Part shown: positions 1-62,182 of the stretch, piece by piece
Position numbering within the stretch: position 1 is the stretch's first letter
How the letters are laid out: each line of letters opens with the position of its first letter
Assembly: GCA_010093705.1 (NCBI GenBank)
Contig: MU006098.1
Location: 944,666-1,008,665, forward strand
Reading direction: 5' to 3'
From: Patellaria atrata CBS 101060
Taxonomy: Eukaryota
DNA: 64,000 bases
The notes under the pieces: generated by a model
Told to the model about the DNA's origin: nothing
What the model saw: only the letters and a program-made list of their open reading frames with translations
Databases searched by the model: none
Made by a program: the position numbers and the translations under genes

Positions 1-2920
1 CCATGACGTGTTCTTGTATTTTTATAAAAAAAAAACACACATGAAGTACTTTGGTCAGTTAAGTGCAGGAACGTAAGGTAGCAGATACCATCGGGTAGCC
101 TTCATATCAGGTTAGTAGTAAGAGCCTCCACTGTGAGGTTGTAAGGTATACTCATCCTTAAAACTACAAGTCCCCGCATTTTTCTTTCAGTGTTTTACTG
201 TACTGTCAAGGTTGAATTACGCCTTTACGGTAGTTCTTATGGATTATTTCAGTTCGCTTCTAATTACGTGCAACCTGTCCTCTTTCGCTCCGTAAGGTAC
301 CTTACGCCATTATTCCCACAAAGTTTACCTTATTATTCCTCACATTCCTCATACTGAAGTCAAGGACGGCACCCATTTTAAACGGTGGAAACATGTTCGG
401 GCTGACATCTGAAACGTCTAGTAGGATCCCGTTGTGCTCTCGGCACCAATCTGCGTATGTGTCTCGAGAAAATTATGAGTAAGGTGTGGTCCCCTCCTCG
501 CTGATCTCTCCCAGCAAAAGCTTTGGTTTTTGGTTTTTAATATGGGTGACGCCCGCAGCGCAGAAGTAGTGGCTTGACCTGCTCAAGATCAATATAATCG
601 AAGCTGCACCTCACTCTGTTCGACAATTCCAGACTGCTTTAGTTTCCTCTTGCTGGTGAATCATTCCTGGCTTGTGGCTGGACGAAAAGTCATCTGCCAT
701 GGAAGAAAAGTCAGATCAGTTTGTGTTATACCGTAAAGCCTTGAAACTACTCCCGTAGTCCCGTATCCCGGCCTGGTTTGAAACCTGGGAAGTCGTACGA
801 AGATCTTCAACTGTATGACTTACGAGTAAAATAATAATACGGAGCAAGAAAAGACCTGACCTTGGGGGTAGTTCTGTTCTACGGGAAACATTATTACCTT
901 GGTCGTGTGTGGTAGATACCTGACCTACCCGTGGGGAAGAAGGGGAGGGGGGGAGGGGGGGGAGGGGTGGGGGTGTAAATCTCACCACAAGGTACAGTAC
1001 CTCGCAGTAGGAGCTTAGATCCAAGGTAGGGCGTCGTCAACATCACAAAGATCTATTCGGCACTTTTCTTAATCTTTGCCTGCACTCCGCAGAGTATCCC
1101 TTGATTTCCTGTTACCTGCTTCTGGTTTGTCTCTTGGGGTAAATTCGGCAACTGGATCGGGGTGTCGATACCGCCAATAGAATTCCATCAGACTGAGGGT
1201 GAAGATGCTGGTGATGCGACAGACGAGCCATGAATCCATCGTTATTGCCATCTCCATACTGCAAGGCCATAACGCTTGTTAAACGTTAAGGAAGTAAAAG
1301 GCGTAGCGAGACGGAGATCGTCTCGTCAATCGCGGCGATCTTAGCCATGAAGCATAACAGAAGAGAGGGATGTACAGCCGATCTCCCTCCGGATACATAG
1401 ACAGGTACGAGAGTTGGCTGTCGTCGTAACTCGTAAGATGTTAATCTTTTACTGCTGATAATCAAGATCGTGCATTGCCTATCCCATTCGCTTCCGACTC
1501 GATCATCGTTCATCGGCTGTCTACGATTAATCAGGTCCGAGTTCCAGACCTCATTCGGCGGCTTTCCGTCTCCTAACATCATATCTCCTCCTGCTCGTCC
1601 AAGAAGGTTTTCGTCGACTACCGGTATGATACTTGCAGAGGACTGGAACAATCGTTACAAAGAACTCATCTGAATTCTACCGCCTGGCAGGGCTGGACCT
1701 CAGAATTGGCCCTAAGGATCTGGAGGTGCCCACTCCGTTTGGCTAGGGATATGTGATGGACTTGGTTTAATTCCCTCTAACGGTAGTGCGTCGTGCTCAT
1801 GTTCTGGATTATCAAATGGTGACGCTCGAAACGGAAGCGGACGGTTCATCTTCGATTCTCAGCTTGGGATGAAATAGAGTTACTGCGACACCAGGTAGCA
1901 AAATGTGGTTACTATAGTTCCACGTCGACGGCGGAAAACTTCAGACTGTGCTGTAGGGAACGACTTGGTGACGTACAACTGATCCAGATTGTGCTGACGC
2001 ACACACCAGGAGTGATCAATCTTTAGCAGCTGCTGATACTCTAGATAAAAAGAGTACACCAGGGTATGTACTCTACAACAATCGTGGGATAGGAGACAGT
2101 ACTGGCCCAAACAAGGGTGATATGTCCTTCACAAAGAGCTGTAAAACCTTGGAGCATAAGTCTTTCCTACATATCTCTCGATAACCTGAGATACTTTCGT
2201 CGCTACTAAATTGAATCGCGAGCACATCAAAGGGGGATAGGCTCTTTAGACCTCCGGGAAAAGATTATTGACGGTAAATTCCATGAACAGTGCCATATAA
2301 AACATCTAGCTCATGAGTCTTTACGCTGTCGTGCTATGAAGAAATGGCATGTTTGAGCATGTCATGTCTCAGAGACATTCTCTACGCAGGGAACAAATCG
2401 GAAGATCCAATTAGGAAAATTAAACCCAGGGAAGAATGTGTGAGGAATATGATCTGGAGATATTTAGACGTGAGATTCTTATCAATTTCGTCATTCTGCT
2501 ATACTTGAGCCCTGTACTAAGGCTGCTGTCGAAAAGAGCGAATACTGGAGATATCGATTTAAGCAAAAGAAAATAACTTGACCGTAGATACTCATAGTAT
2601 TTGACTTAAATAAGCTGATAACTAGGCAGGTGTTGAAGGGGATGTGACAAGTACCTTATCATTCATGGATCCGAGAACACTACCTTGTGACTCATGCCTA
2701 TTTTCCCATCCTAACATACTAGAGCGCGTATGGCAATAAGAAAATAGCCATACTCTTCTTGAAAGAAGTTGAAATGATCTTGAAACACAATCATACATAT
2801 ATTATGCATTACACCGCGCTGGGACGTCCCTTTTTCGTTTCCCTCGGTATATCAGAAACACATAAACGCCGGTTTGTCATGGAAGTGAACACAAAACCTC
2901 TATAGCCCACCATAGTGACA

Positions 2921-4793
2921 TTAGATATTCTCCTCGTTTTCCCTGGTCTTCGCCATTTCCGCAAATGCACAACTTAGCCCCACAACAAAGAGTACCGCAT
3001 TGAATGCCGCCATCAAAAAGAATGGCGCCCCTCTGTCCAGATTATCGAACATCCACCCGCCTAGCTTCGTCAGAAGCAAGATTCCTGCACCTCCATACAA
3101 CGAATAACACCCCGCAATGGAGCCCTTGAGATGCGCTCTCGATGAAGCACCAACTGGCATCTCAATGCTTCTAATATGTGAGGGCATAAGCGGAGAAGTC
3201 TCGTTTAGGAGTGCCTGGGATACAAAGTGCTCAGGACTAAGCAAGGGATCACGAAGAGTGGCAGAACCGACAGATGGCGAGACAAGGGGGGTCGAGGAAG
3301 ATGTATGATTGAAATCGCCGTTCGCCCTGTCTATGCCATTCGCATGGTATGATAGTGGTGGATACGAGGCATTCTGGATACCGTGACTGAGGAGACCGAG
3401 ACTACAAACGATCGCGCCGATTTGACTGATGCCAAGTAGAGCAACGATGAGAAAAACGCCACCACTACCATCATCGCTTTGAGGATCTGGACTTTGGAGG
3501 AGACCAAACGATGCATAACCAGCCATACCGGCCGCGGCGGCTACCAGGAGTGGAATGTTGAATCGTTCATACCTGGCAGAGAGCCAGCCGAACAACGGAG
3601 CGCATATCAATGCTAATAGTTGCGAAGTGCCTGTCAATGTTGCAGCTAGGATATAAGCACGGCGGCAACTCCCTTTAAAGGAGGCATCGTCTTCTGGGTC
3701 CTGCCTGCAGATACCGGAGGAAAAGAAGTAGGAATTCACAAATAACGGGATGAAAAGTGATATAGCAACTGATGACGCTCGTGCGACGAATCCTGCTAGA
3801 TACCCAAGGCCTATCCTGATGTCTTGAAACCCAAGCGAAACCGCCTCTAGAATGAGTCGTCCGTAAGAGAGACTCGGTTGAGATGAAGTTGGTACCTCTA
3901 AGTACTTATCAGGAGCCGCGGTTATAAGCTTCTTCCAAGTTTTATGGCCCTCGCCTGGGAGTTTTTGGAGACCAATGAAGCAGAAGATTGCAATGGCGAA
4001 GGCTACTGTACCAACAGCATAGAAGCTAGCCGCGATAGCAGCACTCGGACTATAATTGCCATACTTTTGAAACTGCGCGGGTAAAGGGAGAAATACCAGA
4101 AGCGCAAGCAATGCTCCTAGCCCAGTAAACATCCCTACGAGTCCAGCTATTTGCGAGGTTGATGCTTTACTAGATTTAGGAGGTGTAGAGTTCCTGGTCG
4201 GTGAACTGGAACGATATCGAGCCGGGGTGATCGTCAACTCTGAGGATATTGAAGGCGTGACATTGTGAGAGTAGCCATTAGACTGTCTAATGCGCAGATT
4301 CGAGCCCGGAAAGGTGATGTGTGTCATCGTAGGCAGAATAGCGGTAACCATGGTGGTCCTGCTCGAAATGTCAGCATCTTCTCTACTGAGGGAATGGAAT
4401 ATGCTATGAGCGCACTCACGTTGCAGCTCCGCCTATGCTAAATAACAGCCTCGCAAGCAATAACTGTGGGTACACATTCTTCGCCTGAACAAATACAAAC
4501 AAACTCAAGCCCACCAATGAAAATCCCACCACAGTTACCGTCCGCACTCCAACCCGATCGCTCACGACACCCCAAAGAGGGCACGCAACAAGAGCGACAA
4601 GTTCATCCGCAAAGCCAAGTGTACCTACAGCATCCCCCACATTATGGCGCTGCTTTATGCGATCGGTGATAACGAAGGAAACCGACGAATTGAGGAAGAC
4701 GAGGAAACTGATACTGAACAGCGCAGCACCGCAGAGGTAGCACGCAATCTGGAGACGGGAAGCAGTAAAACCGAGTGTCAGCAGATTTGCCAT
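2921..4793 (-). CDS. Major facilitator superfamily transporter, 2 exons (4793-4420, 4358-2921)
   Basis: Two hydrophobic ORFs join in frame across a GTGAGT...GCTGAC...CAG intron (4419-4359). MFS motif-A-like 'WGVVSDRVGVR' and 'FGWLSARYER'; many TM segments. Confidence 0.88.
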
Positions 4794-5739
4794 GATGATA
4801 GATGTCGAATTGAGAGCATTGGGAGCATCTGTTCGGAGAGAGCACCTGGTAATTGCAGTGTAGAACGGCTCACTCACAATGAGGTGGCTACGTTTGATAC
4901 TCCGTCCTGTAATCGTAATGTGGCGGCGGGAGCTGACGTCCGGGAAGCGAGTCGCGTTTAATTTCTAGTTTTACCTCACAACCGTCCTACCTCAGTGTAG
5001 GTAGCTTCAACCTAAGTCAAGTATGGAGTACAAAGGACACAGTAATTTACTATAAAGCATCCTAATAGATTCCCGTCGGATCCGCTAAATTACAATTTCC
5101 CAAAGCCTGCAACTCACCAAACAACCAGACTGAGGTGTACGGATACTGTACTGTCCAGTGGACCGGAAACTGTACGAGGAGCCTTCAGTATAGACCTAGG
5201 AATCGGAAACCAGCTCTTCAAAGAACGGTGTATTGAGGACAAAAACTATGCAGACCAGTCTCAACATACGTAGGACTTGACGATACAGTCGATAGTACAG
5301 AGCGTACTCTCCAGATACTTCGAATTCAACACCGCTGTGACGCCACCAGCCGATGGAATTGTAACATGGTGCTGATGAAGTATATTATACCCTAATGATA
5401 GATTATCGTCCGAACATCCTTCCAAAGTTGAATATCAGTTGTCTCATACAGTTAAAGCAAGTATAACGAGAACACGAATATCCAGAACCCCGTCCTAAGA
5501 TAAGGTAAATCATAGAAGACATCTACATTATAAAAAAGAAAAAAGTCCATATCCGGCATTAGCAGCGGCCGCGCATCATCAGAAGACAAACAATAACAAG
5601 GATTCAGCTACGAGGCAACCTGCTCCAGGCGCTGATTAACCCCTCTAGCCGTGGATAGGCCCGTCCCTCGTTCTTGGTCCTTCAATGATAGAATCAATAT
5701 AGAGCACATTCATCTCTCCGTAAAAATTCAGGTCGAAAA

Positions 5740-6575
5740 TCATTTTGTTGACATACCATCTAATTCATAAGGAGGGCGTGTTGGATTTGACATTCCTCTA
5801 GGGTAAGAATACGTCGTCCGATACGCACTCGGTGGCATTACCATGGGCTCCCTTCTCGAAAGAGTCAGATTTCTGTTTCTCTCCTTTCGGTAAAGCCAAA
5901 GGGCCGCCATCAAACCGATCAAGAGAGGCAGACCGACACCAACACCGACACCTGTAAGCGCACCAACAGTGTAAGTGTTACTACTATTTGTAGCCAGCGA
6001 GGCCCCACTCGCTGAAATCGAGGGAGGTGAGATGCTACTTGTAACTGAAGATATTGAAGATGACAGTGGAGGCGTTGATGTACCAGCTGCAGCGATAGAT
6101 AGGGCAAGCTGTGTCGGTCGAAGAACGACTTGACGCACAGCAGTATCGATTTCAAACGTATTCGTTTCGTCGTCGCATTGGTCTCCTCCAACGTCACAGG
6201 CATATTTCTTCACAGGGTACATGGCACATATGGAGATAGCCATTCCATTTGAAGTTCTGTCTAGAAAGAGCGATTAGCAAAGTCAAGCGGGCAACTGTTT
6301 GGAAAACAAGGCGCACCATTCCGACAGTATCTCGCACATACTGGGTCAGTCCAAGATCGATCTGTACAGCTACCACGACTGAGCACACCGTCCCAACATA
6401 AACCGTTTCCAAAGCAGTATGCATTCGCTCCACAACACGCACTGCTCGTGGCCGTAAAGTTGCATGGTACGTCAAATTCTGCAATTGCGCCTGATGGATA
6501 GTAGCATATCTGTGCCTGGGCAGCTAAAAACAAGCAAACTGCAATCACAGCAGAAAGACAATACGAAAAAGCCAT
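5740..6575 (-). CDS. Type I membrane protein: signal peptide, Cys-rich ectodomain, Ser/Thr stalk, single TM (Mid2-like architecture), 2 exons
   Basis: Signal peptide MAFSYCLSAVIAVCLFLAAQA; Cys-rich 'CYYPSG..CC..CFGNGLC..RGSCTDRSW..C'; intron 6316-6261 (GTGCGC..GCTAAT..TAG) joins in frame; TM 'GALTGVGVGVGLPLLIGLMAALWLY' followed by RKERNR. Confidence 0.85.
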
Positions 6576-7300
6576 CAGGGTTGTCGCTAGACGTTATGTC
6601 AGTGGTTGTAGAAAGGTAAAAAACACGTTCTCACCTCCACTAGCGGATAGACAATAAATTCTGGGTTACGCTTCTAGTCTTCTAGTAGGACGAATCCCTA
6701 CGACTCGATGAGGCATCGTGCTTGTTAATATTCATCTCTAAATGTGGTCGAGGGAGAGCTGGTCGACTACTGTACTCTATAGTCTTCAGTAGTCCCTTGG
6801 TCGGTACTACATATCGAGGATTTCGCTTTAACCATTTCCCTTATGAACAGCCCACCGAATGTTCCAAATCCATAAACGCGACAAATGATTTGGTATTCTG
6901 GACAAAGGGATCGTTGGTTGTGACAGCTCAACGTCGAGGAAGTTCATCGTGCGTTTGAGATAACCCCTATGCAGTTGGAAGCATGGATTGCATCACAGCG
7001 CCAAGGTAACTACCTTAATTCTATCGTGCGACATTCCTTGCTAGCCGAGTTAGTTACACCAAAAATAAGATATATACAGGGATATGGACCGATATATATA
7101 ACTTATATATAAATTGGAAACTTATTAAAATAGTTGATTATAGAATTAACGTCAAAAATCATGTACGGTATGGCAACTTTTGCGACAGAACTAACCTGGA
7201 ACAAACAGTCAAGATAAGAATATATATCAAAGAAATGGTGTAGAAGACCACTAGACTATGTTCTTCTTAAAGTATATACGCTGGGTCGTTTGCAGAAGAC

Positions 7301-8380
7301 TTATACCCATCCTTCCAGGCTCATGGTCTTCTGTGTCCATTGTTCCAACTTATCTCGAACGACATCGTTTTTCGCAGACGGACTGAGAGGATCCGCATGG
7401 CTCGCTACTTTGGCGATGCGGACAAAGTATTTTCCACTTTGTTCCGATTTCATTTCTGAGCTCGCCCCACAAAAGACGGACGTGTACGAGCCAATGTCAC
7501 CATTGACATATCCGCCAAAGAAGTTGAAGAACTTCAAAAGGCGTTGAAGATTTGCGTCGGTAGTTCGGCCAGCAAGTTGACTAAAGATTCGGCCTGGTCA
7601 ATATATAGTATAATAGTAGCTCGTCATTGAATTTTCTTACCTCTCCACTAGCCCTGGGGTGTACGGCGCTGGTCCAGATCTCTCCTTTGCCTCCCTTAGC
7701 ATGCTGGGAATTAGGACCGTACAAGCGATGCAATGTTTTTGCGTGTAAGATGTTCGCAAGCTTGCTTTGACCATACTGGGTCATCCCAATATCTTTGGTC
7801 AACTGGTCTTTCATATCTGGGTCTTCGAAGGGCGATACCACCGCGTGGAGAATACCAATGGCCAGCGCTAGTCAGGTTGACTAGCCTTACGTCGCCGGGT
7901 TTGGACACTTTGGCAGTGCGAAGAAGACACGGCAGCAATCGGCAGGTAAAGACCCAATGTGCAAGATAGTTCGTTTGCCATTCGGTAGCATGACCATCCT
8001 TGGTCAAACTATGCTTAATATTCATGACGCCAGCATTGTTGATCAAGCAATGCAATTCATTTCTACAGAAAGGAAGGATTCGCTAGCAGAAACCACTGTG
8101 GCAAGTGATGTATGGTCCATGACAAGAACTTGTAAGTCTGCTTTTGGGTACAATTTCTTTATTGCCAAAACAGTGTCATCCCCCTTTTCGGCTGAACGGA
8201 CGCAGAGATAGACTTTGGCATTGTGAGCTGCCAAGTTCTGGACGGTATAATATCCGCTAAATGATCATGTCAGAGAACTCCTCATACTAGGTTTCACAAA
8301 ACTAGGGGTAACATACATACCAGCGGTCGCCCCAGTTACGATGAAGATCCTCCCGGTAGAGAGTCCGGGTGGAAGGTCAT
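7301..8380 (-). pseudogene. Short-chain dehydrogenase/reductase (retinol dehydrogenase/WWOX-like) pseudogene with four frameshifts
   Basis: Motifs TGATAGIG, NNAG, YGQSK and (V)HPG(LV) are present but split over frames. Frame breaks near 8355, 8056, 7830 and 7656 are not bridged by splice signals. Two normal introns remain (about 8316-8258 and 7640-7581). Confidence 0.8.
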
Positions 8381-8888
8381 AGTAACCTGAAATTTCCAAG
8401 GGGAGATGTAGTGAGCGAAAACGTACTCGGTCTAAGTTAGAAAGAATGAGGTCTGGGGAGCGTGCCAGTTGGACCTCAACATGGAGGCCAGGTTACTTTA
8501 TAACATCTTCCCATGGTGATATCAGACACACTACGGATCGGACGTTAACAAAAAGCCGCGTAAATTTCATGGCAAAGTGTCTCTTAGTTATCTGTGGACA
8601 ACGCGAGAAAAGTAATGAGAATGGTGGGAAGTCCAGATTTGATATTGGCGGAAGAAATAGTCTAGCTCGAAACCGGCAAGGCGCTGTCAGCGGGTTGCAT
8701 AAATGGATCCTCTAGGCCTAACATGGCGAGGTACTCAGGGTCGACGACTGAACGACAGCTTAATTCACCCCAGTGAACGGAAAGTGACTTCCCTCGGGTT
8801 TATAAGGAAGCCATGTATTCTTCTAGAGCACTGTGCTTCGAAGGCGCTCATCTCATCTTTTGTTCAAACATTTTAGGTGCTGCTGCAG

Positions 8889-10082
8889 ATGGAAAATATG
8901 GGCCGTCTGGTCCTTACCCCAATGAAGCAGCTGGCAGAGGTGAGTGATATCATGCGATTTCAACATTTGCTGAGAACTAAACTTGACATTTTGGTAGTAG
9001 GCTGTGGAGGAGAAAGATGACTGGACGGGTATCACAGACACCAAAGTAAGACGACAGAGACAGAATAGGTTGAACCAGAGAGCTCACCGTAAGTATTCTT
9101 GACCGGTCATATCTTGTCCATTGACCACCCTGCAACGCATTTTTCCTCTTGATGACATATCCTACTCCTCTATAATTAATTTTCCAGAGCACACGTGTGA
9201 CTGCTGTACAGAACTTGGCTCCCTGAAGACTACTGTCCCTAGGCTATTATACGCTGATAATGTATTTTAATGTAATCCCAGAATTAATCACGTTCTGAAT
9301 ATGTTCACGGATGGTATGGGATCCTTTTCATATGTATATTCTCCTTGTACATCTCTTTGGAATATCCCTTAATTACCTCAGAGGTTGACATTCAGTGTAC
9401 AGGCCGTCGGAAAGCTACTCCTGTAGCTGTGACAGCGCACCTTACCGACCGTGGCAAGGAGTCCATCCCGAGTCCTCAAGATCAACATGGAAATCCACTC
9501 CCAATGCCTTTAATACCCTACATCTCAGCCTCGGGTTCAGCACCGCACTCATTCACTAACCAGTTTTACTTCCCGCTCTCGTCCGACCACCTCATCACCA
9601 TTATTCAATTCAATGTTCTCCGTGGGATTTTGACCAATATGACCATCCTCAACCTCCTCTCAACTCTTCCATTAGAATGTGGCGGTGCTTTAAACCTCCC
9701 GCAGCATCCTTACCCAGATTCTTCATCAGTTCTGCTCTCTCTCCTGCCCACTCCCCTACAAATACTTACTCAGCACGCTCCCTGGATCGACATATTCCCT
9801 AGTGCCACTGTCCGCGACAACCTTATTCGCAACCAAGGATACTACGACGATGAAGAGCTATGTCACGACATGGTAGGTGGGCTGTACGAGGGCTTCGATG
9901 AGGTGCAGAGGTATGGGATGGTAGTGTGGAACGATCCTTGGGCTGCGGAGGGGTGGGGGGTCACAGAGGGATTTGTACAGGAGTGGGGTTTCTTATTGAA
10001 AGGGGCGGGCGAAATTATTGCGGCAACAAATCGATGGAGAGGTTTAAGGGGAGAAAATGAACTGGTGCTTGAGTACACATGA
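8889..10082 (+). CDS. bZIP-like / DUF3425 transcription factor, 3 exons (8889-8939, 9001-9088, 9403-10082)
   Basis: Exon 2 encodes 'DDWTGITDTKVRRQRQNRLNQRAHR' (basic region). Exon 3 has DUF3425 hallmarks 'DHLITIIQFNVLRG', 'PTPLQ..HAPWIDIFP..RDNLI', 'VWNDPW..GW..TEGF..WG'. Canonical GT-AG introns. Confidence 0.85.
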
Positions 10083-10638
10083 TGGATGTGGGCTTTCCTG
10101 TAGATGGCACAAAAGTGGAGGTAACAGGAGGTAAAAGGTCTACAACACATTTTTCGCTGATATAGTGTAAAACGAACCGTGAGATCTCGGTACTGAACAG
10201 TAGAACAAAAATTCTTTTGGGGTCGATTCAGCGGCGAAGAGCTTATTCCCACCTCAAAGATATCGGATATCCGAGACACTATAAGCCTTTTACAGCGGGA
10301 AAATTTGCGTACCTGCACTCTCTAGTCCAGTTGTACAGCACAGTACAGTATAGGTAGAGACAAAAGACCTCTGACCCTGGCTGTCAGGATCTTAACATGC
10401 ATCAAGCATCTGCTGGATGCATTGGGTCCGATTGACATTTTTCTTTTTGTAGTTGATTAGGAATTAGTGAGTTATACTGTACAATGAAGCAGAAAGTTCT
10501 CTAGTCAGGGTGATTTTCCCCTAGATTAAATCAATCCGAAAATTTCTTGGCGGTACAGTACGTTAACTTCTCGTCTTAATGCTCTATGGCGAACCTTGCA
10601 TCTTTCAGATTATAATCATATCTCTTCTAGAGGGTATA

Positions 10639-12195: not shown

Positions 12196-12808
12196 TACCG
12201 GTTCGGAGAATGGGCGAAGTCATCAAGATCGGTATGAAGGAACGAGTGCAAGTTCATATTTTCCTTTCTACGGGCTGACGAGGGTTCATGAAATGTGAGT
12301 AAGGTGTGATGCATATATCGGCCTTTGTCCGATTGATGAGTATGTTACACATGATGTGACTGAAAAGTCCGAAGGTAAAAGTCCTGTTACACTCACATGG
12401 GTAAGGTAATAACATAAATACCTTACCCTTACCTTACCGTATCCTTTTTTATTACTTTGGTTCTTGTAAGGTAATCAGAAGGTAAGGTACCGTATTCGTC
12501 GTCATAGAGGACTGGGCTTCGACCTAGGTAAGGTTGTGCGGCACCGCTTACCATTTCAAGCCACAGTCAAGTTACCTTATTAATCAGGATTTGGCCGTTT
12601 CCCACTTTCGGACTTGCTTACAATACCTGCACAATCCTCCAAGGGTTCGAACTTCCCACCGACTCCGATACTTTTAGCGCGGCGCTGTATTATAGAATAC
12701 CTTATACACACCAAACACTCGAACTTCTGACCTTATTAGCCTTCGCTCTCCTAGATATCCTTCTTTGTTGTTCTTGAATGTTTCTTCCTTCACATTGAAC
12801 CCGTCCCG

Positions 12809-14925: not shown

Positions 14926-15204
14926 TGTGAAAGGTGAAATTTTAGAGGGGGGAAGACGGGAAGACTTTGGATAACTTAATATCTTTTGCTTCGATGCAGG
15001 GTTGAGGATGACATGCGTCCTTAATCCTTTCATCTCTCTTCGTTTCTATGGGCTCCCTTGTGCAACCACACCCCCTTTATACCCGTACACTTGACGTCGT
15101 ACCTTACCTCCCTCGCGTTAACATCTACAACTTCACTCTTACGCCCCTATCTCCCTCAGCCCCGACATCAATCTCAACCCAGAATGAAAGCCGCAGGACA
15201 CCAC

Positions 15205-16925: not shown

Positions 16926-17602
<677 letters not shown>

Positions 17603-44120: not shown

Positions 44121-44170
44121 TATATGTATATATGTATATATGTATATATGTATATATATATATATATATA
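44121..44170. repeat. (TATATG)n / (TA)n microsatellite
   Basis: Read directly. Confidence 0.9.
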
Positions 44171-49415: not shown

Positions 49416-49985
49416 TAGGGTTATCAAGTATGGGAAATAACAACGTACTGTAAAAAATTCGATTCCGTGATCTGGAGTGTAATGATTTTCAGTGTCTAGG
49501 TCCGTGCGGGTTGGTGTACATATAAGGTAGTTCTAGTTCGAATGTGTCCTATTCTTCATCGACACCTTTTGAATTTTTGTACTCTGTTAGATTTGTCCAC
49601 ATGATGCAATTAGGGGAATATAAAATAAGACTACGGAGTACAGTGTGGTTATAGGTTTTTATCACATGGAGAGACGTTGTCATCGCGACCCGTATACTCT
49701 ATACATACATGGCTACAGTATGAAGGGAGACATCCAACTCGACCCGTAGAGGTGGGTCGATACGCGGGATTTACAGTACAACACCTTCGAGCACAAACTC
49801 AACACGAAGTAAACGAAAAAATGTGTTGGATAATACACCGTTACCAGGAAGTGACAGCAAGCGCAACTACGAGTGTCTACCATCAAGGAGGGAAGAATTA
49901 ACACAGCATCAAACCTACATTCAAAAAGACAAGTAAACTGTGCATTGTACGTCGGGTCACACATAAGTTTGTGGATACATGAGGT

Positions 49986-51641
49986 CTACGACAACGGTTT
50001 CTCCCCCGGAGGTTGGGGCTCATCATATGATCTAAACTCCATCACCGTTTCTGTGCCTTCATGGAATCTGGACTCCTCTTCCGTTTGAGGAATGTGGCCG
50101 TAAGCCCTAGAACCCTCGTGAGTTGAACTATCCCCGGCGAGTTGAAGCTGAGGTTCCACATTTGCAGTATTTGCGGTTGCACTGCTGTCATCGTCCTTTT
50201 TTATATCTACCTCGCTGACCTCGGTGGCCTTAGTCGGAAGTGTATGGGATTTGCGTTCTGGCGACCGCTTTTTGTCTAACTTTTGACCCTCCGGGACATC
50301 TTCGCCACGGGTTGGTTCGATCTCCGGTGAGGTTTCATCCATTACTGACGAGGAAGATTCGAGGCCTGAGCCCCAGGTTCCAGCGGCTGGCTTCCGGCCG
50401 TAGATGAATACTCTATGCACTCATTCGTAAGTTCTCCGTGCAAGAAAAGGAGAAAACGACAGTAAAACCAAGTACTTACACCGTGAAGTAGAAGTGCGAC
50501 TTTTGCGCCTGAAGCTCCTTTCGAAATTCGGACAGGAGTACTTCGACCCTTTCTCTAGAAAAGCCCAAAATTCTCGTGAAGAAAGCCAATGCCATACCCT
50601 GGGCCCCATCCAAAATATCCTGCAAACACCATTTCCCTAGCAGTTTCTCGCGCTTCCCTTTCGCCCACGGACCGATCGGCCTAGATCGTATTAGTACGCG
50701 AAGTATTAGCAATTTTGAGAGTGTTCGGCGGACCATTTGAATCGCTTTACGTGGATATCAACGAATCCAGCTTGCCGTAGCAAGTCTGGTATCTTCATTG
50801 CCGCATCTAGGTCTAAACCCGCTTTCGTTCCAGCTTCGTACAAATGCTCCACAAACTCGTACATAGGGGAGTCGGGAGGGGCAGAACCGTCATCACACTT
50901 TGGCCTTATATGGACTTCCTGCAGTTCGAAGTATCCGCCCCTTTTGAGACCTTTGAATGCTCGTTGAATATAGGCTGGCCAGTCGCGAATTCCGATAACC
51001 ATAGCCCGAGAGTGGATAAAGTCGAATTTCCGGTCATGAGTCCATTCCAGTTCCACATTATCGACAAGAAAGCTGCAATTCGTGGGGACTTCTGTGGGTT
51101 GGATCGGACTTAAATCGATACCAAGTACATTGGCTGATGGATGCTCGTCCGCAAACTCAATGGTCCATATGCCTGTGCCGCAACCGACATCCAGAACATC
51201 ATGTACCACCTCTTTTGGAACTGGGGCAAGGTAGAGACGACCCCCTAGGGTCAACCGAAAGAGATGGTGTTGTAGGTCCAGCCTATCCGCCTCAATTTCG
51301 TCGTTTGGGAGATAATATTGACCATCGTAGTAGGCATGGTAACGGCGACCGTTCTCTTCGCGATAAGCAAGCGTGGAGGGAGTCAAGGACTGAGTGGTTC
51401 TATTAAACTGGTTAGCCTTGTTAAGACGAACTGTATTTCTTGCTCTCGCAGTTCTTACGAAAGAGTATCGTCCCCCAAAGCCGAGTCACGATCACTGAAT
51501 GTAGACTATTTGCCAAGTCATGATATATTAGCATCATAAGGTATGCGGAGGTTCAGGCTAATAGATAGATCCTACCTCCGCCTCCAGAGAGTCACTACTG
51601 GATATGTTATCAACTATATCAACTATAAGATTTTCTGCCAT
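49986..51641 (-). CDS. LaeA-like (Llm / Methyltransf_23) SAM-dependent methyltransferase with an acidic C-terminal tail, 5 exons
   Basis: 'ENGRRYHAY..YYLPNDE.E.DRLDLQH', 'VLDVGCGTGIW', 'GIDLSPIQP', 'FDFIHSR', 'LKRGGYFELQE', 'W|PIGPW', 'YGRKP'. All introns are GT-AG and in frame. Confidence 0.92.
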
Positions 51642-52713
51642 TGTTCATGAGAAGCTTAAACTTCTCGCTCTCAAAGTTCATGGCTGCGACGAATTGTATA
51701 GAGCGACCAAAATTGATTGACATGGCAAAGAGAAGGATTGATCGGACCAATCTTCCGGATTAGCCTAGAAGTTAAGGGTGGGGGGATCGCAACAGCATCT
51801 ATCGTTATTTGTGCGGTTCGTATGTACTGTACTGTACTATGCATGTATCGCTTGTACGTTAGATCGATTGACCTTAGGTTGGATTACCCCACGAGATATG
51901 TGTCCCTTCTTGACGGAGAGAGCCGTAGAAACACACAAAGTTCAAGTACCATTTATCACACTTTGAAATTTTAAATGTAGGTCTGTATACTAAAGGATGT
52001 ATTGAATAAGAAAAGTTGAATCTTGGGATTTACTCGTAAACGATTCTCAACCATTTTCTCCCCCTCCTTCCATCCACATAGGATCTCGGATTCGACCAGT
52101 CAGGACAGGAGATCTCCGACAGCAAAGATTGATGGGTACAGTATGTACCTCCGTGCTCTAATACGGAGTACTGGTCGGGTACCTGGTGTACTGCACTGTA
52201 ACTTACCAGTACAGTACAAACTGCAAAGTACCTCACCCGGAGACATGAATCAACTTATCTTATAGACAACTTTAAAGACAAGTGGTTTAAAAAAGTTTCA
52301 ATAGAGAAAGACAAGCTTTGGGCCATCCGATCAAAACCACTCAAGTTGGCGGTGGACTTTCTCCCCCATTGTCGACAAGGCAGTTCTACACTGCATGTAA
52401 GTTTAAAATACCGTACAACAACACAGTAAAGGATCAATGCAGAACTACCCGACTGGCGCTATAGTGACTTGGAATTTGTCTACTTACTTTATCTTATTCC
52501 GCTCTGTACTTGTACCCTACCTCAGTTCTAGTTGGACAGTATCTGACCGTGCCACTTCTCAGCCGTTCCTCATCCCGAAGATCCGCGTCTTATATTTGTA
52601 TCTACTGTACCAGAAACCCATCCGAAGAACAAAGAGCACAGTAGTCTAATGCCGAACGCTAGGTAAAAGTCTAGTTCTACTGTACCTACCCTAGGTATGC
52701 ATTTGCTCTAGGG

Positions 52714-55306
52714 ATGGCAGACCCACTCTCAATCGCCGCGAGTGTTGTCGCACTCGCGACAGCGGCCGCGCAAATCAGTAAAGCTATCTCCCACCTACGC
52801 AGACTTGGGGAAGTTCCAGGTCAAATATACGCCCTGAGGAACGAGGTCACCGATCTAGAAGTCGTGCTCCGGCAGATTGAAAACGCACTCGAGCTGAATA
52901 CGTTAACTCAACAGGACCATCGTCGCTCGTTGAATGACATGCTGGTTCGAGCAAAGGGCAATCTCTCTGAACTTGCGAAAGCTCTTGAGCGTGTTGCGAA
53001 TGCATGTGAAAAAAGTAAGGCTAAAGTCATAAGCAGGACTGCCGTTTGGTTGAGAGAGAAATCACACCTGCAGAGGCTTCTAAACGACATACAGACAGTC
53101 AAAGAAGCACTAAATCTCATACTTGGGGTCTCAAATTCGTAAGTCCATTGCTTTATTCCCTTTTGAACCAAGCGCATCAAAGGCCGACTGTGAATCTCCA
53201 GGCGAGACCTTCATCACATCCAATTAGAACTTCATAAAGTCTCCATCATGACTACGCAGTCGGGACAACTTCACGAAAAGCATTCGAGAACGGTCACTCG
53301 CGATCTTGATAATCACCACCTTGCATTGAGTTCACGTATGGACCAGCACTATCAAGACTTAAGTAGCCGCCTTACGATTCTGGGACGGTTGATTCTCCAG
53401 CAAGCTCATGGGGAAGCGGCTCCTCCGTATACAGAAGAAGCAGCTGCGACAATGGATGAAACGGGGGCGAGTAGATCACGCAAAATCGATGGCCTTCAAG
53501 TTTTCGTTTCGCAGCCTAATAAATGTTCGACTTGGTGTCCCTGTGCTTGTCACGCAAAGCGAAAGCCAAAAGTCACTGAGCTCGGAATCGTGGAGAAAGT
53601 CATCGGGAAAATGTTTATTGGCTATGCCGGATTACCCTTTCTCAACAAAAAATGCGATTTCAGGGGCTGCAGACACCAACGAGCCCCTACTGTTATTATG
53701 GAATATTGGTTCCCATGGTGGTTTGTAGCGATGAACGTGAAGCTCGATTTCAAATATCTACCAACTGTCGGATCCCAATTTCAAGTAACAACTTCAAGGA
53801 GAGTACCGGATAACTCTCAATCAATTGCCTTTGTTATGCAAAGGGATATCGATGGTCTAAGATACCTGTTCAATAATGGCTTAGCGTCCCCCAGGGATGT
53901 TAGTGACTCCCGTGGCTTCACCTTGATGAGAGTAAGTCCCTTCTCGGCTGTACTTTACGTCCTCCTTTTGAATATCGTTAGTGGGCCCTTTACGGAGAAT
54001 GGCGATACGACGTTGTCCAGTTCCTGATAAGTCAAGGCGCACCTGTGGATGAAATGTGTGTATAGTTCTAGCTGCGTGTAATCTTCGCATAACTAACGAA
54101 GTAGATCATACGATAATGTTTGAGACTTCATTTTTCGGGGTCAAGTTGGGCGTAAGGAACAAGAAGGGCTCCGCTGCATAACAGAAGATGGTGAACGGGA
54201 CTGGGTAGAAGATCAGAACTTTCCACTCGTTCATAGGATAGTACTCGGACTGTCCTCCAAATCATTAGCTGTTGAACTTCAGGAGAACCCCTTAGCAACT
54301 TACCTTACGGATGCATCTGGTCGGACTGCGCTCGACTGGGCTGTGGCAAGAGGCCAAGTAGAAGATGTCGCTCTCCTTCTTGCCAACGGTGCTAATCCGA
54401 ACACCATGGATATTACTGGCCGTACGGCAATGCTCCATGCTGTAGATTGCGATAGTTCTCCGTGTGTCCGTCTTCTTCTTGAAGCAGGTGCTGATACAAA
54501 TCCTAAGTTACCGAAGGGTGTTTTCCGCAGCAGTCCCCTGACCGCCGCCGCTATGGGAGGGAAAAGAGATTTGATGAGAGTTCTCCTAGAATTCGACGCT
54601 GACGCCAATATTAGAAATCCGGAGGGACTGACACCGTTACATTCTGTTGCGCGTTTTCGAACCGCTGATTGTGCCCTAGTTTTACTAGAGCATGGTGCGG
54701 ATCTTAATGCTCTCTCTCGCGATGGAAGAACCCCACTGACAATGGCAATTATTTATAACAATCATGAGGTCTTACAGCTCTTCATTGACCGCTGTTATGA
54801 GTATATTACTTCTGCACGCCTCCGAGGTATGTACTGTACTGTATTGTCGCACATATTGAACGTAGAAATCTCAAAGGTCAGAAGAGCTCATTGTCGTTTT
54901 AATAGGTCCTCAACTACTCCCAGTTATTGCAGAGTACGCCGACATCAGAACCATGTCTATTCTTGCCTCATCCCATCCCTTAAAACTCTCGTACGATATC
55001 AGTCCTGGTAGCATGATCAGGAATCGAGAACTATTACTCGGACGTTTTGACTATTCCGAGAAATTGTTAGAAATCTTTGAAGAATTAATCACCATCGCTC
55101 AAGTGGATAACGTCAACTCCCCATCTGTCGATAGTCTCTTAGAGTCCGGTCTTTTCCGTACTGCTAGGTCATCTTTTCGGTCCGATCTGGCTGAAGCGAT
55201 GGAAGCTCTTGACTTTTCAGACGGGTCTACAGACGGGAGTGTGGGTAAGTTTGAAGATTCAAGAGAAGCTCTATCTCCCATCGAAAAACCCCCGTGTACA
55301 TTTTAG
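52714..55306 (+). pseudogene. HeLo-like (fungal STAND N-terminal) domain + Cys-rich segment + ankyrin repeats, 5 exons, interrupted by one in-frame TGA at 54121-54123
   Basis: N-terminus 'MADPLSIAASVVALATAAAQI'; 'CSTWCPCACH', 'EYWFPWWF'; ankyrins 'GRTALDWA', 'GRTAMLHA', 'SPLTAA', 'GLTPLHSV', 'GRTPLTMA'. Exons 52714-53138, 53202-53931, 53982-54055, 54105-54826, 54906-55306. Exon 4 reads SYDNV*DFIFRG. Confidence 0.75.
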
Positions 55307-55626
55307 TTGTATCTTAGACACGGATAGTAATATACCGCTGTTAAGGTGTTGGGAAAGTATACGGACACTTCAAAACGTACTTTTGGACCCGAGCTAAATG
55401 TGAGACTACTGTATGCCCAGAGAAGCTATCCAGGAGGAATCCCCATACGGACAGTACATTATTCCATACCAAAATACTATGTTTATTTACTTAACGCGAT
55501 GTTATATTTTGTTGTAGAACACGTAAGGTGTTATCTGTATGGGGATTCCTGCCATAGATAGCTCCTCTGGGGCATACAGTACATAAGAGTGATCGAAGAA
55601 TGCTGACATTACAATCCATCACATCG

Positions 55627-56577
55627 CTAGTCGGCTGATGGAATGGCAAGTCCAATGAAAAATCCGGGCTCGTTGATATTGCAGTTTTTATAACTGATAA
55701 TTCCACCTTAGTCAGCGACTTGGACTGCTCTTTCTCTTAAATCTGGGTAGGCACAAACCTTAAAACCCCAATCGCTCCTGGTGACATCATCATGGGCAAT
55801 TTCTCCTCCAACGGATACTTCAACCACCTTTTCGCAAACGCCCTTAGAATAAGGCCATGGGCCACCTAGAAACCATCAGTTCCCCTTAGAATCTTGGAGC
55901 TGGAGCTGGAGTACAAACTTACCAGCACGATATCTGCAGGATGTTGACCATCTATATACCGCGCCTGAATCTCCCTAATCGTCGAGATTAGGTTATCCAA
56001 CCTCTTTGTGACCTGCTGGACAGACCTGTAGAATATCATCGGTAAGATGTGCGCGTACATATTTTCCGGGGGGGTTGGTGGAGAACCTACTCTCCTCCCT
56101 CTTCACACCCATCCCTCCAGATATCCCACTCTCTCTCTACATCCAGCCCTTTCTGTTTCCTACCTTCTCTAATATCTTCCACCTTCATCCCCTCATACGC
56201 GCCGTAATCCCATTCTGCGATGTCCTCCGTGACCGTCACATTCTCTCTGTCAAGGCCGGTGCAGTTTCCGAAGAGAAGCTCGAAGGTCGTCTGTGCACGC
56301 TTGCGAGGGGAAACGTATATATGGTTGACGCGGGATGGATCGATCAGTTTCTTGGGACCGACTAGATACGCGCCGGTAGACGTGACTTGGGCTTCCCCGG
56401 CTGGGGTTAGGGGCACTTCGGTTGTACCCGTGTACTGGCCGCTCTTCGTCCATTCTGTCTCGCCTGCACGGATGCTTATTAGAGGGTGAGGCGTCGAGAA
56501 GGAGACGTGTGAGCGGGTTAATACAAACCGTGTCGGCATAGGAACACGCGAGGGGTTGAGGCGTCGAGATCGGACAT
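55627..56577 (-). CDS. Histidine phosphatase (phosphoglycerate mutase family), sedoheptulose-1,7-bisphosphatase Shb17-like, 5 exons
   Basis: 'TPRVFLCRH|GETEWTKSGQYTGTT', 'SPRKRAQTT', 'EWDYGAYEG', 'WDIWRDGCEEGE', 'VAHGLILRAFAKRW', 'GVLS|Y'. Confidence 0.9.
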
Positions 56578-57665
56578 TTTGGGGTAAGTGAGGGGGGAGG
56601 GGACGGGGGGTGTGAGGTGGTTGGAGGGGATCAGGTAAGTGTATTGTTACCTAAAGGTATCTTATTGATGGGTATCTCGTAATCGTGAGACACAATCAAC
56701 CTGATAATTGTGAGGGGTAAGGTACCTAAGGTAAGGTAGTCTCTAATGCAAGTCTCTAATGCAAACATCCCCCCGCATTTTGGCGTTTAGGGCAAAGGCG
56801 TAGTTCGATCTTCGATCATGATTATTGCGATTGCGATTGCGATTGTGATTCCGATTTCCATGCGGCCAAGATGAGGTCGTCAGTGATGGTAAATTAATGC
56901 GGCAGGGTCTTGTGATCGCTGGTAAGGTAACTACCCAGGCGTACAGTGCAGTACAAGTATACAACTCCACATGTATGTATCTTTTGAGCAAACTTTTGGT
57001 GTGGGAGTGTGACAAGCGTAAATATCCTCCTGGTGATAGTATTTTGGTAAGTGAGCCACTTTAGGGTAACGTACTTTGCAATATGGGAGGAGTCAGCTCG
57101 TCTGTCTTGTTGGAGACGGACTTATGCGTTGCTTCAGAGGAAAAGGATTGTTTGGAGACATTGGATGCACTCGTCATCATATGATAATAGATAAAGATAT
57201 TTGATGTATCTAAAGAACTACTGCCGGTTAACACTCAATATCTGTTCAAGCTTGACTGTTACCAAGTTATCAACCCTACGTCGACAATCACCTTGTTCGA
57301 CTAAAAAGACATCCCTTTTAATCTTGTACAGTACCTCGTACTGTAGCATCTCCCCTTAGATATTCCGCGGAGTACTGCACAAAAGGATCATTCCATTCCT
57401 CACCCCGAGTAGATATCCGGTCTACCAGCACTATCTAACGCGGCCCGTTTAATGACGTCCTTGGATAATGGCTTCATGGCTAAGGTTCCTGTCCACTATA
57501 CTCTCCACAATAGTGGCTGTGTACTGTTGCCGACACGAAGATGGTATCATAATGTCGAAGATATAACGTTGGTCTTCATAGGCGCCTGGTAATGTTGCTG
57601 TTCCTCGTTTTCCAAGGACAAACACTTTACGAGATTCAAGATTCCCACCGCCTTGTCGACAAGCT

Positions 57666-58184
57666 TCATCTAGGATAACCCACAAGACTAGCACAGCGAC
57701 CACAATAATAAAGGTTTACGCCAAATTGGACCTTATGACTGCCTGTCGAAACTGCCGAACCCGTGCTGAAATCCCTTCGGCACCGAAGGCAACGAACAAA
57801 GGTAGGTGGTACTGGAGTAGAATTTGCGGTCGAAGAGGTTGACGAAGACCGGGAATATGTTTCCGTAGCGTCCTCAGAACCGTCATCTTCAAGATCGAAA
57901 ACGTCTTGTATCGCTTGCGCCTTCCGTGGCATTTGAGTGTATGCAGCAGTAGTTTGAAGCTGGAGGACCTTCGACGCTTGCGAGTTTGCTGTCATGTCTA
58001 GAGGCGTTGGTAGCTCCCGGTATGCCAATAACGGATTGTACGGATCCGGAGATGGAAGTTCTCCTGAGCTGTCAGCAGGAGAGGGGAGCGGTGTTTCGAT
58101 GGAGAAGTGGGTCGAGGGATGAGGGATGTAGGTGAAGTAGCTGGCCTGTTGGCTATCGCATAACCTTAAGGTTGTTTCAAACAT
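57666..58184 (-). CDS. Hypothetical Ser/Thr-rich protein with a C-terminal CxxC...CxxC module
   Basis: Single ORF; first ATG at 58184 (the ORF track starts at a TTG). Ends 'RCLRCRR...GVNLYYCGRCASLVGYPR'. Confidence 0.65.
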   Translation of the reverse strand: MFETTLRLCDSQQASYFTYIPHPSTHFSIETPLPSPADSSGELPSPDPYNPLLAYRELPTPLDMTANSQASKVLQLQTTAAYTQMPRKAQAIQDVFDLEDDGSEDATETYSRSSSTSSTANSTPVPPTFVRCLRCRRDFSTGSAVSTGSHKVQFGVNLYYCGRCASLVGYPR

Positions 58185-61100
58185 GTAGGCCAGGTAAGAA
58201 GGCAAGGTGGGTAAGGTATGTGTTACAGGCTCGGTTTGGAATGAGGATTTGGGGTTGGTTATCTCAAGAGTATAATAAGATAGGAAGGTTGCAAGGGGAC
58301 AAGGGAGTGAGGGCGTATATGTGCTAGACGGACCCCATCACGGAGGAAGATAAAATTATGCTAGAGTTTAGGTACGCTGCTGGAGTGTGAATAATTTCTC
58401 AATCGGATCCGACAAGGCGGATCGAGCAACAAAGGGTGTGCAAGGTGGTTGGTAAGAGATGGTAAAGTACAAATACTGTACTGGTACCTTTTAGGTTACC
58501 TGTACTGTACAGCCCACCTCAGTAAGTGCGTCCACCCGACGCGCCGTCCAACAAATGAAGTGCCTTACGTGGGTTGACTACTGATACTGAGGTTTCGAGG
58601 AAAAATATGAGAGTTGTGAGGTCTCGATGCCTCACCAGCCCACTCGATTCCAGACCCGAATCACGCGCTCAAAAGAGTTTAGGGGAAACCTAAGCTCTGC
58701 TAGGCATAGATCAAACAAAAGCTGCGAATCCTGGATCAAGGAAGGACCTGAGGAGTTGATCCTTCCCTACCAGGTATCTTTTTGATACTGTACTCCGTAC
58801 TTTCCTACCGTTGATTTCTTACCTTCTTATAAGGTTCTCCATCGAAGATCCTTCACGTTCTGAAAACAACCACCTAAGAGCCCAGGTACTGCTCGATATC
58901 TCATGGATGCTTTCCCTCCTTTACCTTGTACAGTGCTTTCTGCAACAACCCGACTTCCGGTTTCCTTTGCTGTGTTGGTGTCTTAACGTTCAACTTCCCG
59001 GATTGAAAATCTCGCCACGGCCCAGTGAGAATGTACGGAGTACTGTAGAACTATGGTAAGGTACTATACTCTTCTGTACTGCCGTGTACGTCGGTCGTCC
59101 CGTCATGACTTCGAAACTGAATCATATTTTATCTTCCGTCCAGCTCATTCTCGTAACTACAATGGAACGGGGACCGTGGTGTACTGTAGCAGTACCTTAC
59201 TGTACAAACAAAATTCACCGAAGGCCCACGGCTGACTACCGTACATATCACACCGCTACCTTGACTCCTGGGTGTCGTGTCACCTAGGCTCACCGGAATC
59301 CAAGATCAAATTCTCAATACTCAGCTAGAGTGAGATGGGAAGATGAGATTTACTCCGCTGGAACGCCAGGAACCCAATACAATTCGTCATAAAAATACAA
59401 TGGAAGTATGAGAATGTACATACTTTACGGATAACTCATTAAGCTGGGATGATAAAAGGCTAGATTTCGAACTTCTGACCTTCTGACCCTTCTAGAAAAC
59501 CGTTCGACATGGATAGACGGATACGTGCCCCCCGGTGCGGCTCTAGGTAGCAAGGGGTAAGGTAGGTTCTAGACTCTTGAGTGAACTGAGTCTCATAACG
59601 AAAACACCTCACGGTATCCCATCCATCCAATACAGTACCTTTTAGGTTACTTTTATCTTTCTCTCCGTCCTTACCTGTGCTAGCACGAAGTGCTCTCGGC
59701 AACCTGGAACCGTAAGGTAATATAAGGAAATATATACGGTAACGAAAGGTAACGTACCGCCTCCCCTTCATTTTCGAAGTTTTCCTCTTCCACTCAGGTT
59801 ACACTACCCAATTATTACAATAAGATATTCTTAGCTATATTAAGCTTTCAGATCATTCCAGGCCTCGTCTTAGAGTGCGTCGACCGGTGCATCCATCTCT
59901 TGAATAGGACTACCTTACCTTCCCTAAGGTACCGGGCCGGGCGTAAGGTAACTTCGTCGATAAGGTAGGTACGGTACATTAGATTAGCAAAGGTCCCCCG
60001 TCTAAGGTAGTTCTAAGGCGTAGTCCAGACCCCGAGGCCACTTATCAAGGTAAACTCCCGTCTATCTCGATTGGTTCTGCACTGTGCCAATACCAGCATG
60101 TACCCAACTCGTGATAATCGCCACCGGGGCTTCCAGTTTTTGTCCTTGTACTATTGGAATGGGACTAGCTGGACACTGCTCAATCTCCAGCATGGTTTAC
60201 CTCAAATCGCAAAGTACTAATAAGGTATTTCCAGGTCCAATTCGCGAGAGGAAAAGGGGTCATCTCGATCAGCCCATCGGATTCGGTTTACCATATCTCA
60301 GTAACCTTCCAGATTATTGCTTCCTAATCAATAATACGATTTTTTAGGACGACTCCCTTCCTCTCTTGCCTATCTGGATACCTTACTACCTCACTATACC
60401 GTATCAGCCTCCATATCGTGTACCCGTCCGGACCCATTCCATCAGCTTATCTAAGCTACCTGGCTTTAAGCGGTGAAGTCCATGCACAAGTACGGTAGAA
60501 GGGAAGGTAATGTAAGGTAAGGTAAGGTAGTATCAGTACGCCTACACCTTTGAGTTCTCGCGCAATTCTTACTCTAGACTGTAAATACAGCCATCCAGCA
60601 TTGGCTCAAAATCGTACTCACCGCATGAAAACGATTTTGTTGGTATGAGAAAAGACAAAATATCCCTATCGTAGGGTTTGCGATGCAACCAGCCCAACTA
60701 TCCTTTGGATAAAACAGACGGCCGTCTTCAAACCTCGGTGTGTCGACAGGACCATTTGCGGCTCACTGGTGTGTGATCCGGGCTACCTCTTTGTGTCTAT
60801 CAAAGTTTTGGTACTATCTTAGTGGTATAGGAAATACTATAGTTCGCCATCCTCCGCTCGCGTTGTAGACGAGTAAAAGGCATGTAAGTGTCAAGAGAAA
60901 TTAACAAGCTGTATGTGTCAGTTACCCGTGAACTTCTGATATACGGAACGATGTTGACGGGAAGATGGAATGGTTTTGTAATATGGTCCCTTTATACCTA
61001 TTCACGTGTTCGCGCGTTCGTCCAGTCCGTTATCTAGAATTTGAAACAACCCCCCCTTCCCCCTTCTCCCCGCGGAATGGAAATCTTATTATTTATTTTG

Positions 61101-62182
61101 GCATTAAGAGGAACAACAACAGGATCGCATTCGCATTCGCACTGGGGGTTGAGATTTATACCGCAGGAAACATTGCCTTATAACTTTAAAAACTAGTGCA
61201 GAATTCGGAAATTGATCTGAATGTATATATATGTATCTATTCAATAAATACGTGTGGGCTCGCTTGTTGACATGCACCGTCTACCTTACTTTATCCCTCT
61301 GGATTCTATTTGCAATTGATTTCTACCCGCGCCGTCGGGATTACGTCAAGGCGTCATAGAGGTGGCGAAGGGATAGTTCAAGTTTGGTGAAACGACTAAA
61401 GGTACTGTAGTTGGTTCTACCTTAAGGTAGAGATAAGCATAAGATACCTTAATAAAATTCTCTTGTAGTATAATCTATCTAATAGGTATGGATAAGGTAC
61501 AAAAAGCCAATGATTGACGTAACTTCACCTATTAACTCTCCTTCCATCGTTGCAAAGGCCCCTGTGAGGTTGACATTCTGAGATGTGTCCGAAAGACAAG
61601 CTAGTTTTATTACTTCTGCGCTTGGAGATTTCCATTCATTATTTTTTTTTTCTTTTAATTTTTCTTCCATAATTTAAATGTCCTTTTGAGAGTCCCCTTG
61701 TGACAAAGTATAAGCTTGGCCAACAATCTTATTCTTTCGTCTCTAGAACTAAACCGAAGGGTGCAGCCAGCGGGATTTCTGGCGCAAACATCATTACCGT
61801 ATCGTAACGATTTCTGCCGGGCGTCATTGATTGCACCGTTAACGAAACCAAGTCTTTTTTTCTAACCCTAACCCTGTCCGCTTCACTCATCATCGTTTTG
61901 AAGATAAGGACTTTAGTTTCATAATATATATGCTTCAAACTACCCGACTCCATTCCCACCTCGGATTTCTTACGAGCGGAGCACTTACATTCGCGGGCCC
62001 TTCTGTCTGGAAATTCATCAACCCACGATCTTGTTCGCTTTGATCGTCTTGTCAAGGTATGATCCATTCTTAGAGGCATGACGTCCACTATAATATCTAC
62101 CATACGAAGATACTAACAAGGCAACATCGGAATAGGTGACATATACATCGTACAGTACAACATCCCATTTACGACAGATACG

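Follow-up and report, generated by a model that had tools for sequence, protein, structure and literature searches.

Words in which a short core is enclosed by two TA dinucleotides recur in the non-coding DNA of a 64,000-nt stretch of the Patellaria atrata CBS 101060 genome (G000:C10:944666-1008665, in an assembly of 28.7 Mb and 127 contigs), hereafter referred to as the window. The question raised by this locus is where such words come from, and whether they are the footprints of Tc1/mariner transposons that have long since left, as a first-pass annotation of the sequence had proposed. In published work, Tc1/mariner elements are described as duplicating a TA target, with end joining leaving a footprint after excision (PMC2874221), and the Sleeping Beauty element as yielding TACTGTA and TACAGTA footprints (10.1101/659086). 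From the evidence presented below we conclude that the words are probably for the most part repair scars, that is, excision footprints, of cut-and-paste transposons of the Tc1/mariner/pogo type.

Words were counted on both strands together and compared with Markov backgrounds of order 0 to 4. TAAGGTA/TACCTTA occurs 58 times in the window and TACAGTA/TACTGTA 53 times, whereas orders 0-3 predict 6-10 copies of either and order 4 predicts 17-19. The first-pass annotation had estimated more than 30 copies of TACAGTA/TACTGTA against about 8 expected and a similar frequency for TAAGGTA/TACCTTA, which agrees with these counts, and all 12 of the 12 positions that it cited for the former carry the word. 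In the non-coding part of the window TACAGTA was found 51 times and TAAGGTA 57 times, compared with maxima of 31 and 32, respectively, in 50 order-4 simulations. Two further words that it listed as recurrent, TACGGTA/TACCGTA (16 copies vs 6-8 expected) and TACGGAGTA (4 vs 0.4), are real, if weaker than the main two. A third strong word was overlooked: the 8-mer class TAGAACTA/TAGTTCTA, that is, TA-GAAC-TA/TA-GTTC-TA, with 14 copies in the window. Words are designated below by their cores.

The distribution of the main words is likewise as had been claimed, since 108 of the 111 copies lie outside confidently coding segments, called with a conservative hidden Markov model (HMM) that gives rough gene calls. 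Two of the 53 TACAGTA copies sit inside the inverted arms of a truncated miniature inverted-repeat transposable element (MITE; Table 1). Density per non-coding base in the window exceeds that of the genome sample described below 2.3-fold for CAG and 3.1-fold for AGG, and is highest in the last 24 kb. The description of the window as saturated with TA-NNN-TA heptamers was overstated, because strong enrichment concerns two of the 32 classes; the remaining 30 reach at most 18 copies (TAAGATA, 18, and TACGGTA, 16, come next). The idea of an intergenic sequence largely written by footprints was also wrong, since the bases contributed by excess exact words amount to 0.58% of the non-coding DNA (about 1.4% in the window, by a hand estimate).

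The excess is genome-wide and confined to non-coding DNA. Over the whole assembly and both strands, TACAGTA was found 8913 times vs 3939 for its reversed control, and TACCTTA 7655 times vs 5060. When all classes were ranked in 40 evenly spaced 10-kb stretches, CAG/CTG (134 vs 47) and AGG/CCT (111 vs 40) were the top two of the 32 TA-NNN-TA classes and GAAC/GTTC (49 vs 9.7) was the top of the 136 TA-N4-TA classes; CCG/CGG reached 59 vs 39. Other XY-NNN-XY frames fell far below, with the exception of poly-A and of shifted forms of the same words. Over the 654 kb used to compare coding with non-coding DNA, the observed/expected ratio was about 1 in coding segments, and in non-coding DNA it was 224/69 for CAG (3.2-fold), 212/62 for AGG (3.4-fold) and 70/13.5 for GAAC (5.2-fold). 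Exact words are accompanied by one-mismatch neighbours in an excess about as large as their own, transition-biased for GAAC (74 vs 22) and CAG and free of such bias for AGG. This halo is what steady gain and decay of words predicts.

Each of the three strongest words matches the terminus of an element resident in the same genome. Family searches gave 19 DDE_3 and 66 DDE_1 matches, and ends were read at the 15 top-ranking loci per search and at about 28 further places; of 90 TA-flanked ends flagged, three were removed as spurious matches of a B-family probe, leaving 87. One family, which we take to be Tc1-like DD34E, is represented by L003 and begins TA|CTGTGG. It has four full copies and one partial copy (two ends read CTTTGG), encodes a DDE_3 plus HTH_Tnp_Tc3_2 transposase with D-34-E spacing (hand count), and shows terminal inverted repeats (TIRs) and a TA duplication. 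A second TA-flanked DDE_3 family begins TA|CTGTGA. The families ending in AGG, GAAG and GAC are presumably pogo/Fot1-like; they combine a DDE_1 transposase of D-35-D spacing (D275, D311) with TIRs and a TA duplication. The TA|AGGG family contributes 25 distinct ends, 24 of which start with AGG, and its matches are up to 100% identical. The TA|GAAG family contributes eight ends and has two intact 624-aa open reading frames (ORFs; L075, L078). Further TA-flanked ends read GACG (3), ACCC (2) and ACGT (39).

The cores CTG/CAG and AGG/CCT thus correspond directly to resident ends, and GAAC would correspond to three bases of a GAAG end joined to one base of the other end. By a post hoc hand estimate, a chance coincidence of resident termini with the two leading 3-mers and the leading 4-mer has a probability of about 0.005. 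The first-pass annotation had predicted TA-flanked families ending in CAG, CCT and CCG: the CTG/CAG- and AGG/CCT-ended ones were found and the CCG-ended one was not. The GAAG family, which it did not predict, fits the word that it overlooked. Among the words predicted for other families, GAC is mildly enriched (44 vs 30 in the 40 stretches; 50 vs 36 in the 654-kb set), and GAA/TTC and AGGT are not.

Several peculiarities of the resident transposons were recorded along the way. Besides its transposase, the CTGTGA element (L001, L002; about 2.8 kb) has a second ORF, 230-250 aa long, on the other strand. Three DDE_3 (Tc1/IS630-like) elements have CAC...GTG ends (L007:1295-2734, L009:1281-2717 and L010:1279-2734), and in L007 and L009 they are flanked by 3-bp duplications in place of TA, which is unusual for the DDE_3 transposase class. 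L028, L089, L090 and L177 are very AT-rich decayed copies, such as repeat-induced point mutation would leave, and near-intact kin of the same families are present.

Elements are also found directly beside words. Seven of the 87 ends adjoin one of ten tested words, the expectation being given by the 2.1% of non-coding TAs that do so (p=0.0025), and among the four full copies of the CTG element two lie next to their own word, TA-CAG-TA. Indels were sought among paralogs within the one genome and among metagenome loci; the paralog screen left out L028, L089, L090 and low-GC alignments, as AT-rich decayed copies swamp the signal. A 5-bp indel was obtained in the MITE family mentioned above (about 288 bp; 10 copies, 83-100% identical to the window piece), whose copies carry TA-AGG-TA where the related L112 and L115 carry a single TA. 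The family comprises L094-L103, L112 and L115. An 8-bp target duplication in L099, present with one mismatch in L102, suggests a hAT- or Mutator-type parent. The window MITE was considered as a CTG-ended or CGG-ended TA element and ruled out: the alignment shows GGG...CCC ends, and it is therefore not a footprint source.

These observations could be accounted for as follows. An element would insert at a TA and duplicate it, staggered cuts at excision would keep a few of its terminal bases attached to both flanks, and end joining would convert these into TA, terminal bases and TA, in either orientation. CTG-ended Tc1-like families would produce CTG/CAG, the AGG-ended pogo-like family AGG/CCT, and the GAAG-ended pogo-like family GAAC/GTTC through the 3+1 join. 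Several families would reuse the same open non-coding spots, scars piling up where new elements land. Scars in coding DNA would be purged, and those in non-coding DNA would persist, presumably as neutral sequence, until point mutation erodes them; some would expand by slippage into (GTAAG)n arrays. The CCG/CGG and CGGAG/CTCCG words may stem from families that have been lost or that our searches missed.

A number of results weigh against this interpretation. The footprint model leaves unexplained why GAAG ends should join as 3+1 and AGG ends as 3+0. With 39 of the 87 ends, ACGT-ended pogo elements outnumber the other families yet lack an enriched word, the words for such ends staying at background (ACG/CGT, 38 vs 34; ACGT, 6 vs 7.5; AC/GT likewise). 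The cores CCG/CGG and CGGAG/CTCCG match no terminus among the resident elements read; no CCG- or CTCC-ended family was met among the DDE loci read, and a search for a CCG-type TIR pattern gave four matches vs six for the control. Should local clustering raise the background twofold, to 4%, the abutment of 7 of 87 ends weakens to p=0.06. The MITE indel, the sole footprint-like one in the filtered paralog screen, may be either a gain or a loss, and a single base change would turn it into a tandem duplication. No footprint-like indel appeared among the metagenome loci, none of which matched own-genome loci above 80%. Flanks of isolated words are not mirror-symmetric, as a palindromic target preference would make them, with G before TAAGGTA in 32 of 94 copies and C after it in 14 of 94 (p=0.004), and a similar asymmetry at TACAGTA, 57/112 before vs 39/112 after (p=0.02); around the GAAC word they are roughly symmetric.

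Chains of words sharing a TA had been put forward as a mark of repeated insertion and excision. All five chains named in the first-pass annotation exist, and they turn out to be weaker evidence than was claimed. The window holds 19 chains, of which 12 mix families, two are inverted and five direct; the occurrence of both orientations and of mixed families is in favour of footprints. Genome-wide, TAMNKTAMNKTA has 2543 matches vs 862 for its control; the first 100 listed of these include four-unit mixed chains, and their CAG-family pairs are 13 direct vs 10 inverted (hand count). The shared TA is the start of a non-direct word in 4.6% of cases, compared with 3.3% for other TAs up to 100 bp away (p=0.13) and 2.3% for those 101-300 bp away (p=0.002). 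Adjacency is thus about 1.4 times the rate at other nearby TAs, another point that counts against footprints, and we rejected chaining as proof of them, as it is not significant relative to local clustering.

Prediction of host words from element ends in other fungi also mostly failed. A metagenome scan with a pogo-clade alignment retained 78 of 481 confirmed loci, 43 of which were assigned by eye to ends GAAG, GGAG, CCG, CAG, ACG and AGG; the hosts may be only distantly related and the flanks lie near transposons. Flanks in GAAG hosts contain GAAC 4 times vs 3.3 expected (81 kb), those in CCG hosts CCG 3 times vs 2.9 (38 kb), and those in AGG hosts AGG once vs 1.1 (11 kb). In favour of footprints, CAG-host flanks do show their own word (7 vs 2.1), all seven copies being in L258 (7 vs 1.6 there alone), and two of 83 listed ends adjoin their own predicted word, namely the GAAG element L232 at TA-GAAC-TA and the CAG element L249 at TA-CTG-TA. 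CCG ends, sought in vain above, are common in the same pogo clade in other fungi. The presence of an element is thus not enough to load a genome with its word; prolonged activity together with end-joining repair would be needed. In L217, L236, L240, L246, L250 and L264, also from other fungi, CCG/CAG-ended pogo elements are often arranged head to head with a further TIR, a single TA lying between them, which suggests insertion at the TA next to an element already present.

Among the other explanations, the one that survives best, improbable as we judge it, is that the words are bound by one or several general regulatory factors, such as those we presume to recognise GTAAGGTA, GTACAGTA and the heat-shock-element (HSE)-like GTTCTAGAAC, transposons landing nearby because the chromatin is open. 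Non-coding location, clustering on a 100-bp scale and the asymmetric flanks, with G before the word, would all suit such sites, and TACGGAGTA is listed among chromatin immunoprecipitation motifs in Ustilaginoidea virens (PMC8344781). Position relative to genes, based on the rough HMM calls, speaks on both sides. At 11.9 and 2.5 words per 1000 TA, respectively, AGG and GAAC are roughly two times denser in divergent spacers than in convergent ones (5.1 and 0.9), as promoter elements might be, but CAG has no promoter-side bias (convergent 10.3 vs divergent 8.8 per 1000 TA), and the three words pooled are about equally frequent upstream and downstream of coding segments (146/6903 vs 127/6934 TA). 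In the flanks from other fungi, whose hosts may be only distantly related, AGG and GAAC stay at background and CAG is weakly enriched. Binding sites leave unexplained why three unrelated words have TA at both ends, why they match resident termini, and why paralogs differ by an indel.

We consider it very doubtful that the words, although transposon-derived, are remnants of element ends left by internal deletion or aborted gap repair, or that they once lay inside the TIRs of MITEs now decayed. The two MITE-internal copies in the window and the heavily mutated AT-rich element copies show that material of this kind exists, but pooled flank profiles display no TIR continuation past the words, and TA on both sides is not expected of TIR stubs. 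Equally doubtful is the idea that slippage produced the words, which would then go back to microsatellites with units of 5 bp (and 6 bp) or to short tandem duplications. It draws on the closeness of the MITE indel to a duplication and on GTAAGGTAAGGTA, which has 134 occurrences against 7 of its reversed control, in runs of up to 11 overlapping matches. Direct pairs are however few (9 in 224 AGG words and 9 in 241 CAG words), and slippage cannot make inverted and mixed-family chains. The (GTAAG)n microsatellites with 8-11 overlapping matches, at G000:C10:439892-439954, C3:1084782-1084839 and C6:1151203-1151250, probably expanded from the AGG word. A 5' splice-site origin of TAAGGTA (AG|GTA, GTAAG) is hardly credible despite donor-like window copies at 51537, 54301 and 58212, since between same-strand coding segments the sense strand carries fewer AGG than CCT (32 vs 55, p=0.02), which excludes splice donors as the source, and since CAG and GAAC would be left unexplained. 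Splice-site and microsatellite origins were accordingly rejected as main causes, on strand bias and on the scarcity of direct pairs.

Footprints of the fungal elements Fot1 and impala are probably comparable to those proposed here. The likeness to Sleeping Beauty/Tc1-type footprints (10.1101/659086; PMC2874221) lies in identical 7-mers and a TA target, here alongside a resident DD34E family with CTG/CAG termini; the difference is that Sleeping Beauty footprints are single engineered events, whereas here thousands of natural, apparently fixed words are deduced from the sequence of one genome. For Stowaway elements, renewed insertion next to footprints that consist of 2-4 plus 1-2 terminal bases is described (PMC1925063). 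The Stowaway/Osmar5 case at the Triticeae beta-amylase intron in that source shares site reuse, insertion beside an old footprint and unequal remnants like GAA+C and CTCC+G; it concerns one locus, a species phylogeny and heterogeneous footprints, in contrast to the few stereotyped words of several families found genome-wide here. The pogo-type element Passer leaves 0-4 bp (PMC9976928), as DDE_1 transposases acting at TA would here, with the difference that here pogo footprints would be leading non-coding words of the genome, a role in which we met them in no report on any genome. In the available text of the literature searched, motif logos in figures not being searchable, we found no report that ranks excision footprints foremost among the non-coding words of a fungus, and the portions available of PMC8419926, 10.64898/2026.10.05.756768, PMC13728883 and PMC1636448 contained nothing decisive on the footprint question.

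If the words are indeed scars, a compact genome whose families each number from a handful to a few dozen copies carries some 10,000-13,000 fixed ones (hand-scaled), and copy number badly understates DNA-transposon traffic. Scars would then map element landing sites and preserve a record of families now extinct, and searches for motifs in fungal promoters would pick them up as false regulatory motifs. The natural excision rate of cut-and-paste elements, a long-standing unknown, would become testable through population indels. As a tentative extension, which we do not favour outright, the lineage-specific top non-coding words of filamentous fungi, TACGGAGTA included, might form a family-coded fossil record of excision, in which excisions outnumber surviving copies 100- to 1000-fold, and which marks past insertion hot spots and seeds microsatellites and possibly regulatory sites.

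Table 1. Positions of TA-enclosed words, chains, clusters and the MITE in the window.
Feature	Position	Strand	Remarks
Dispersed TA-x-TA words	74..63370	.	145 in total: 53 CAG/CTG, 58 AGG/CCT, 16 CGG/CCG, 14 GAAC/GTTC, 4 CGGAG/CTCCG
Densest cluster	58786..60529	.	28 words in 1.75 kb; subclusters 58786-59237 and 59558-60523; long spacer upstream of 6-phosphogluconolactonase gene
Three-family chain TA-CGGAG-TA-CTG-TA-GAAC-TA	59034..59053	.	
Mixed chain TA-CTG-TA-CTCCG-TA	58786..58799	.	
Mixed chain TA-CTG-TA-GTTC-TA	25701..25713	.	
Mixed chain TA-CAG-TA-CGG-TA	25844..25855	.	
Mixed chain TA-CAG-TA-CCT-TA	30248..30259	.	
Mixed chain TA-CCT-TA-CTG-TA	40304..40315	.	Second copy 59193-59204
Mixed chain TA-AGG-TA-GTTC-TA	49523..49535	.	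Second copy 60003-60015
Inverted same-family chain TA-AGG-TA-CCT-TA	293..304	.	Reverse order CCT-AGG at 61418-61429
Direct chain TA-AGG-TA-AGG-TA-AGG-TA	60513..60529	+	Proto-microsatellite
Cluster of 9 AGG/CCT/CCG words	12402..12704	.	Within spacer
Truncated copy of ~288-bp MITE	55351..55581	+	GGG...CCC ends, not TA-targeting; TACTGTA/TACAGTA at 55407, 55575 in arms
5-bp paralog indel site in MITE	55524..55530	+	TA-AGG-TA in main subfamily (one base decayed here), single TA in L112, L115

Besides these features, positions 39590-39671 of the window hold a degenerate 15-bp tandem array around TAAGGTA, and a similar array is found at G000:C2:2257513-2257555. The genes of the window are fungal: the best database match of the 6-phosphogluconolactonase at 62183-62974 is 83% identical, and the named best matches belong to the Dothideomycetes. 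The gene at 52675-55011 combines a PigL_N/SesA N-terminus with ankyrin repeats, and positions 18007-19623 encode a multi-C2H2 zinc-finger protein, which we take to be TFIIIA-like.

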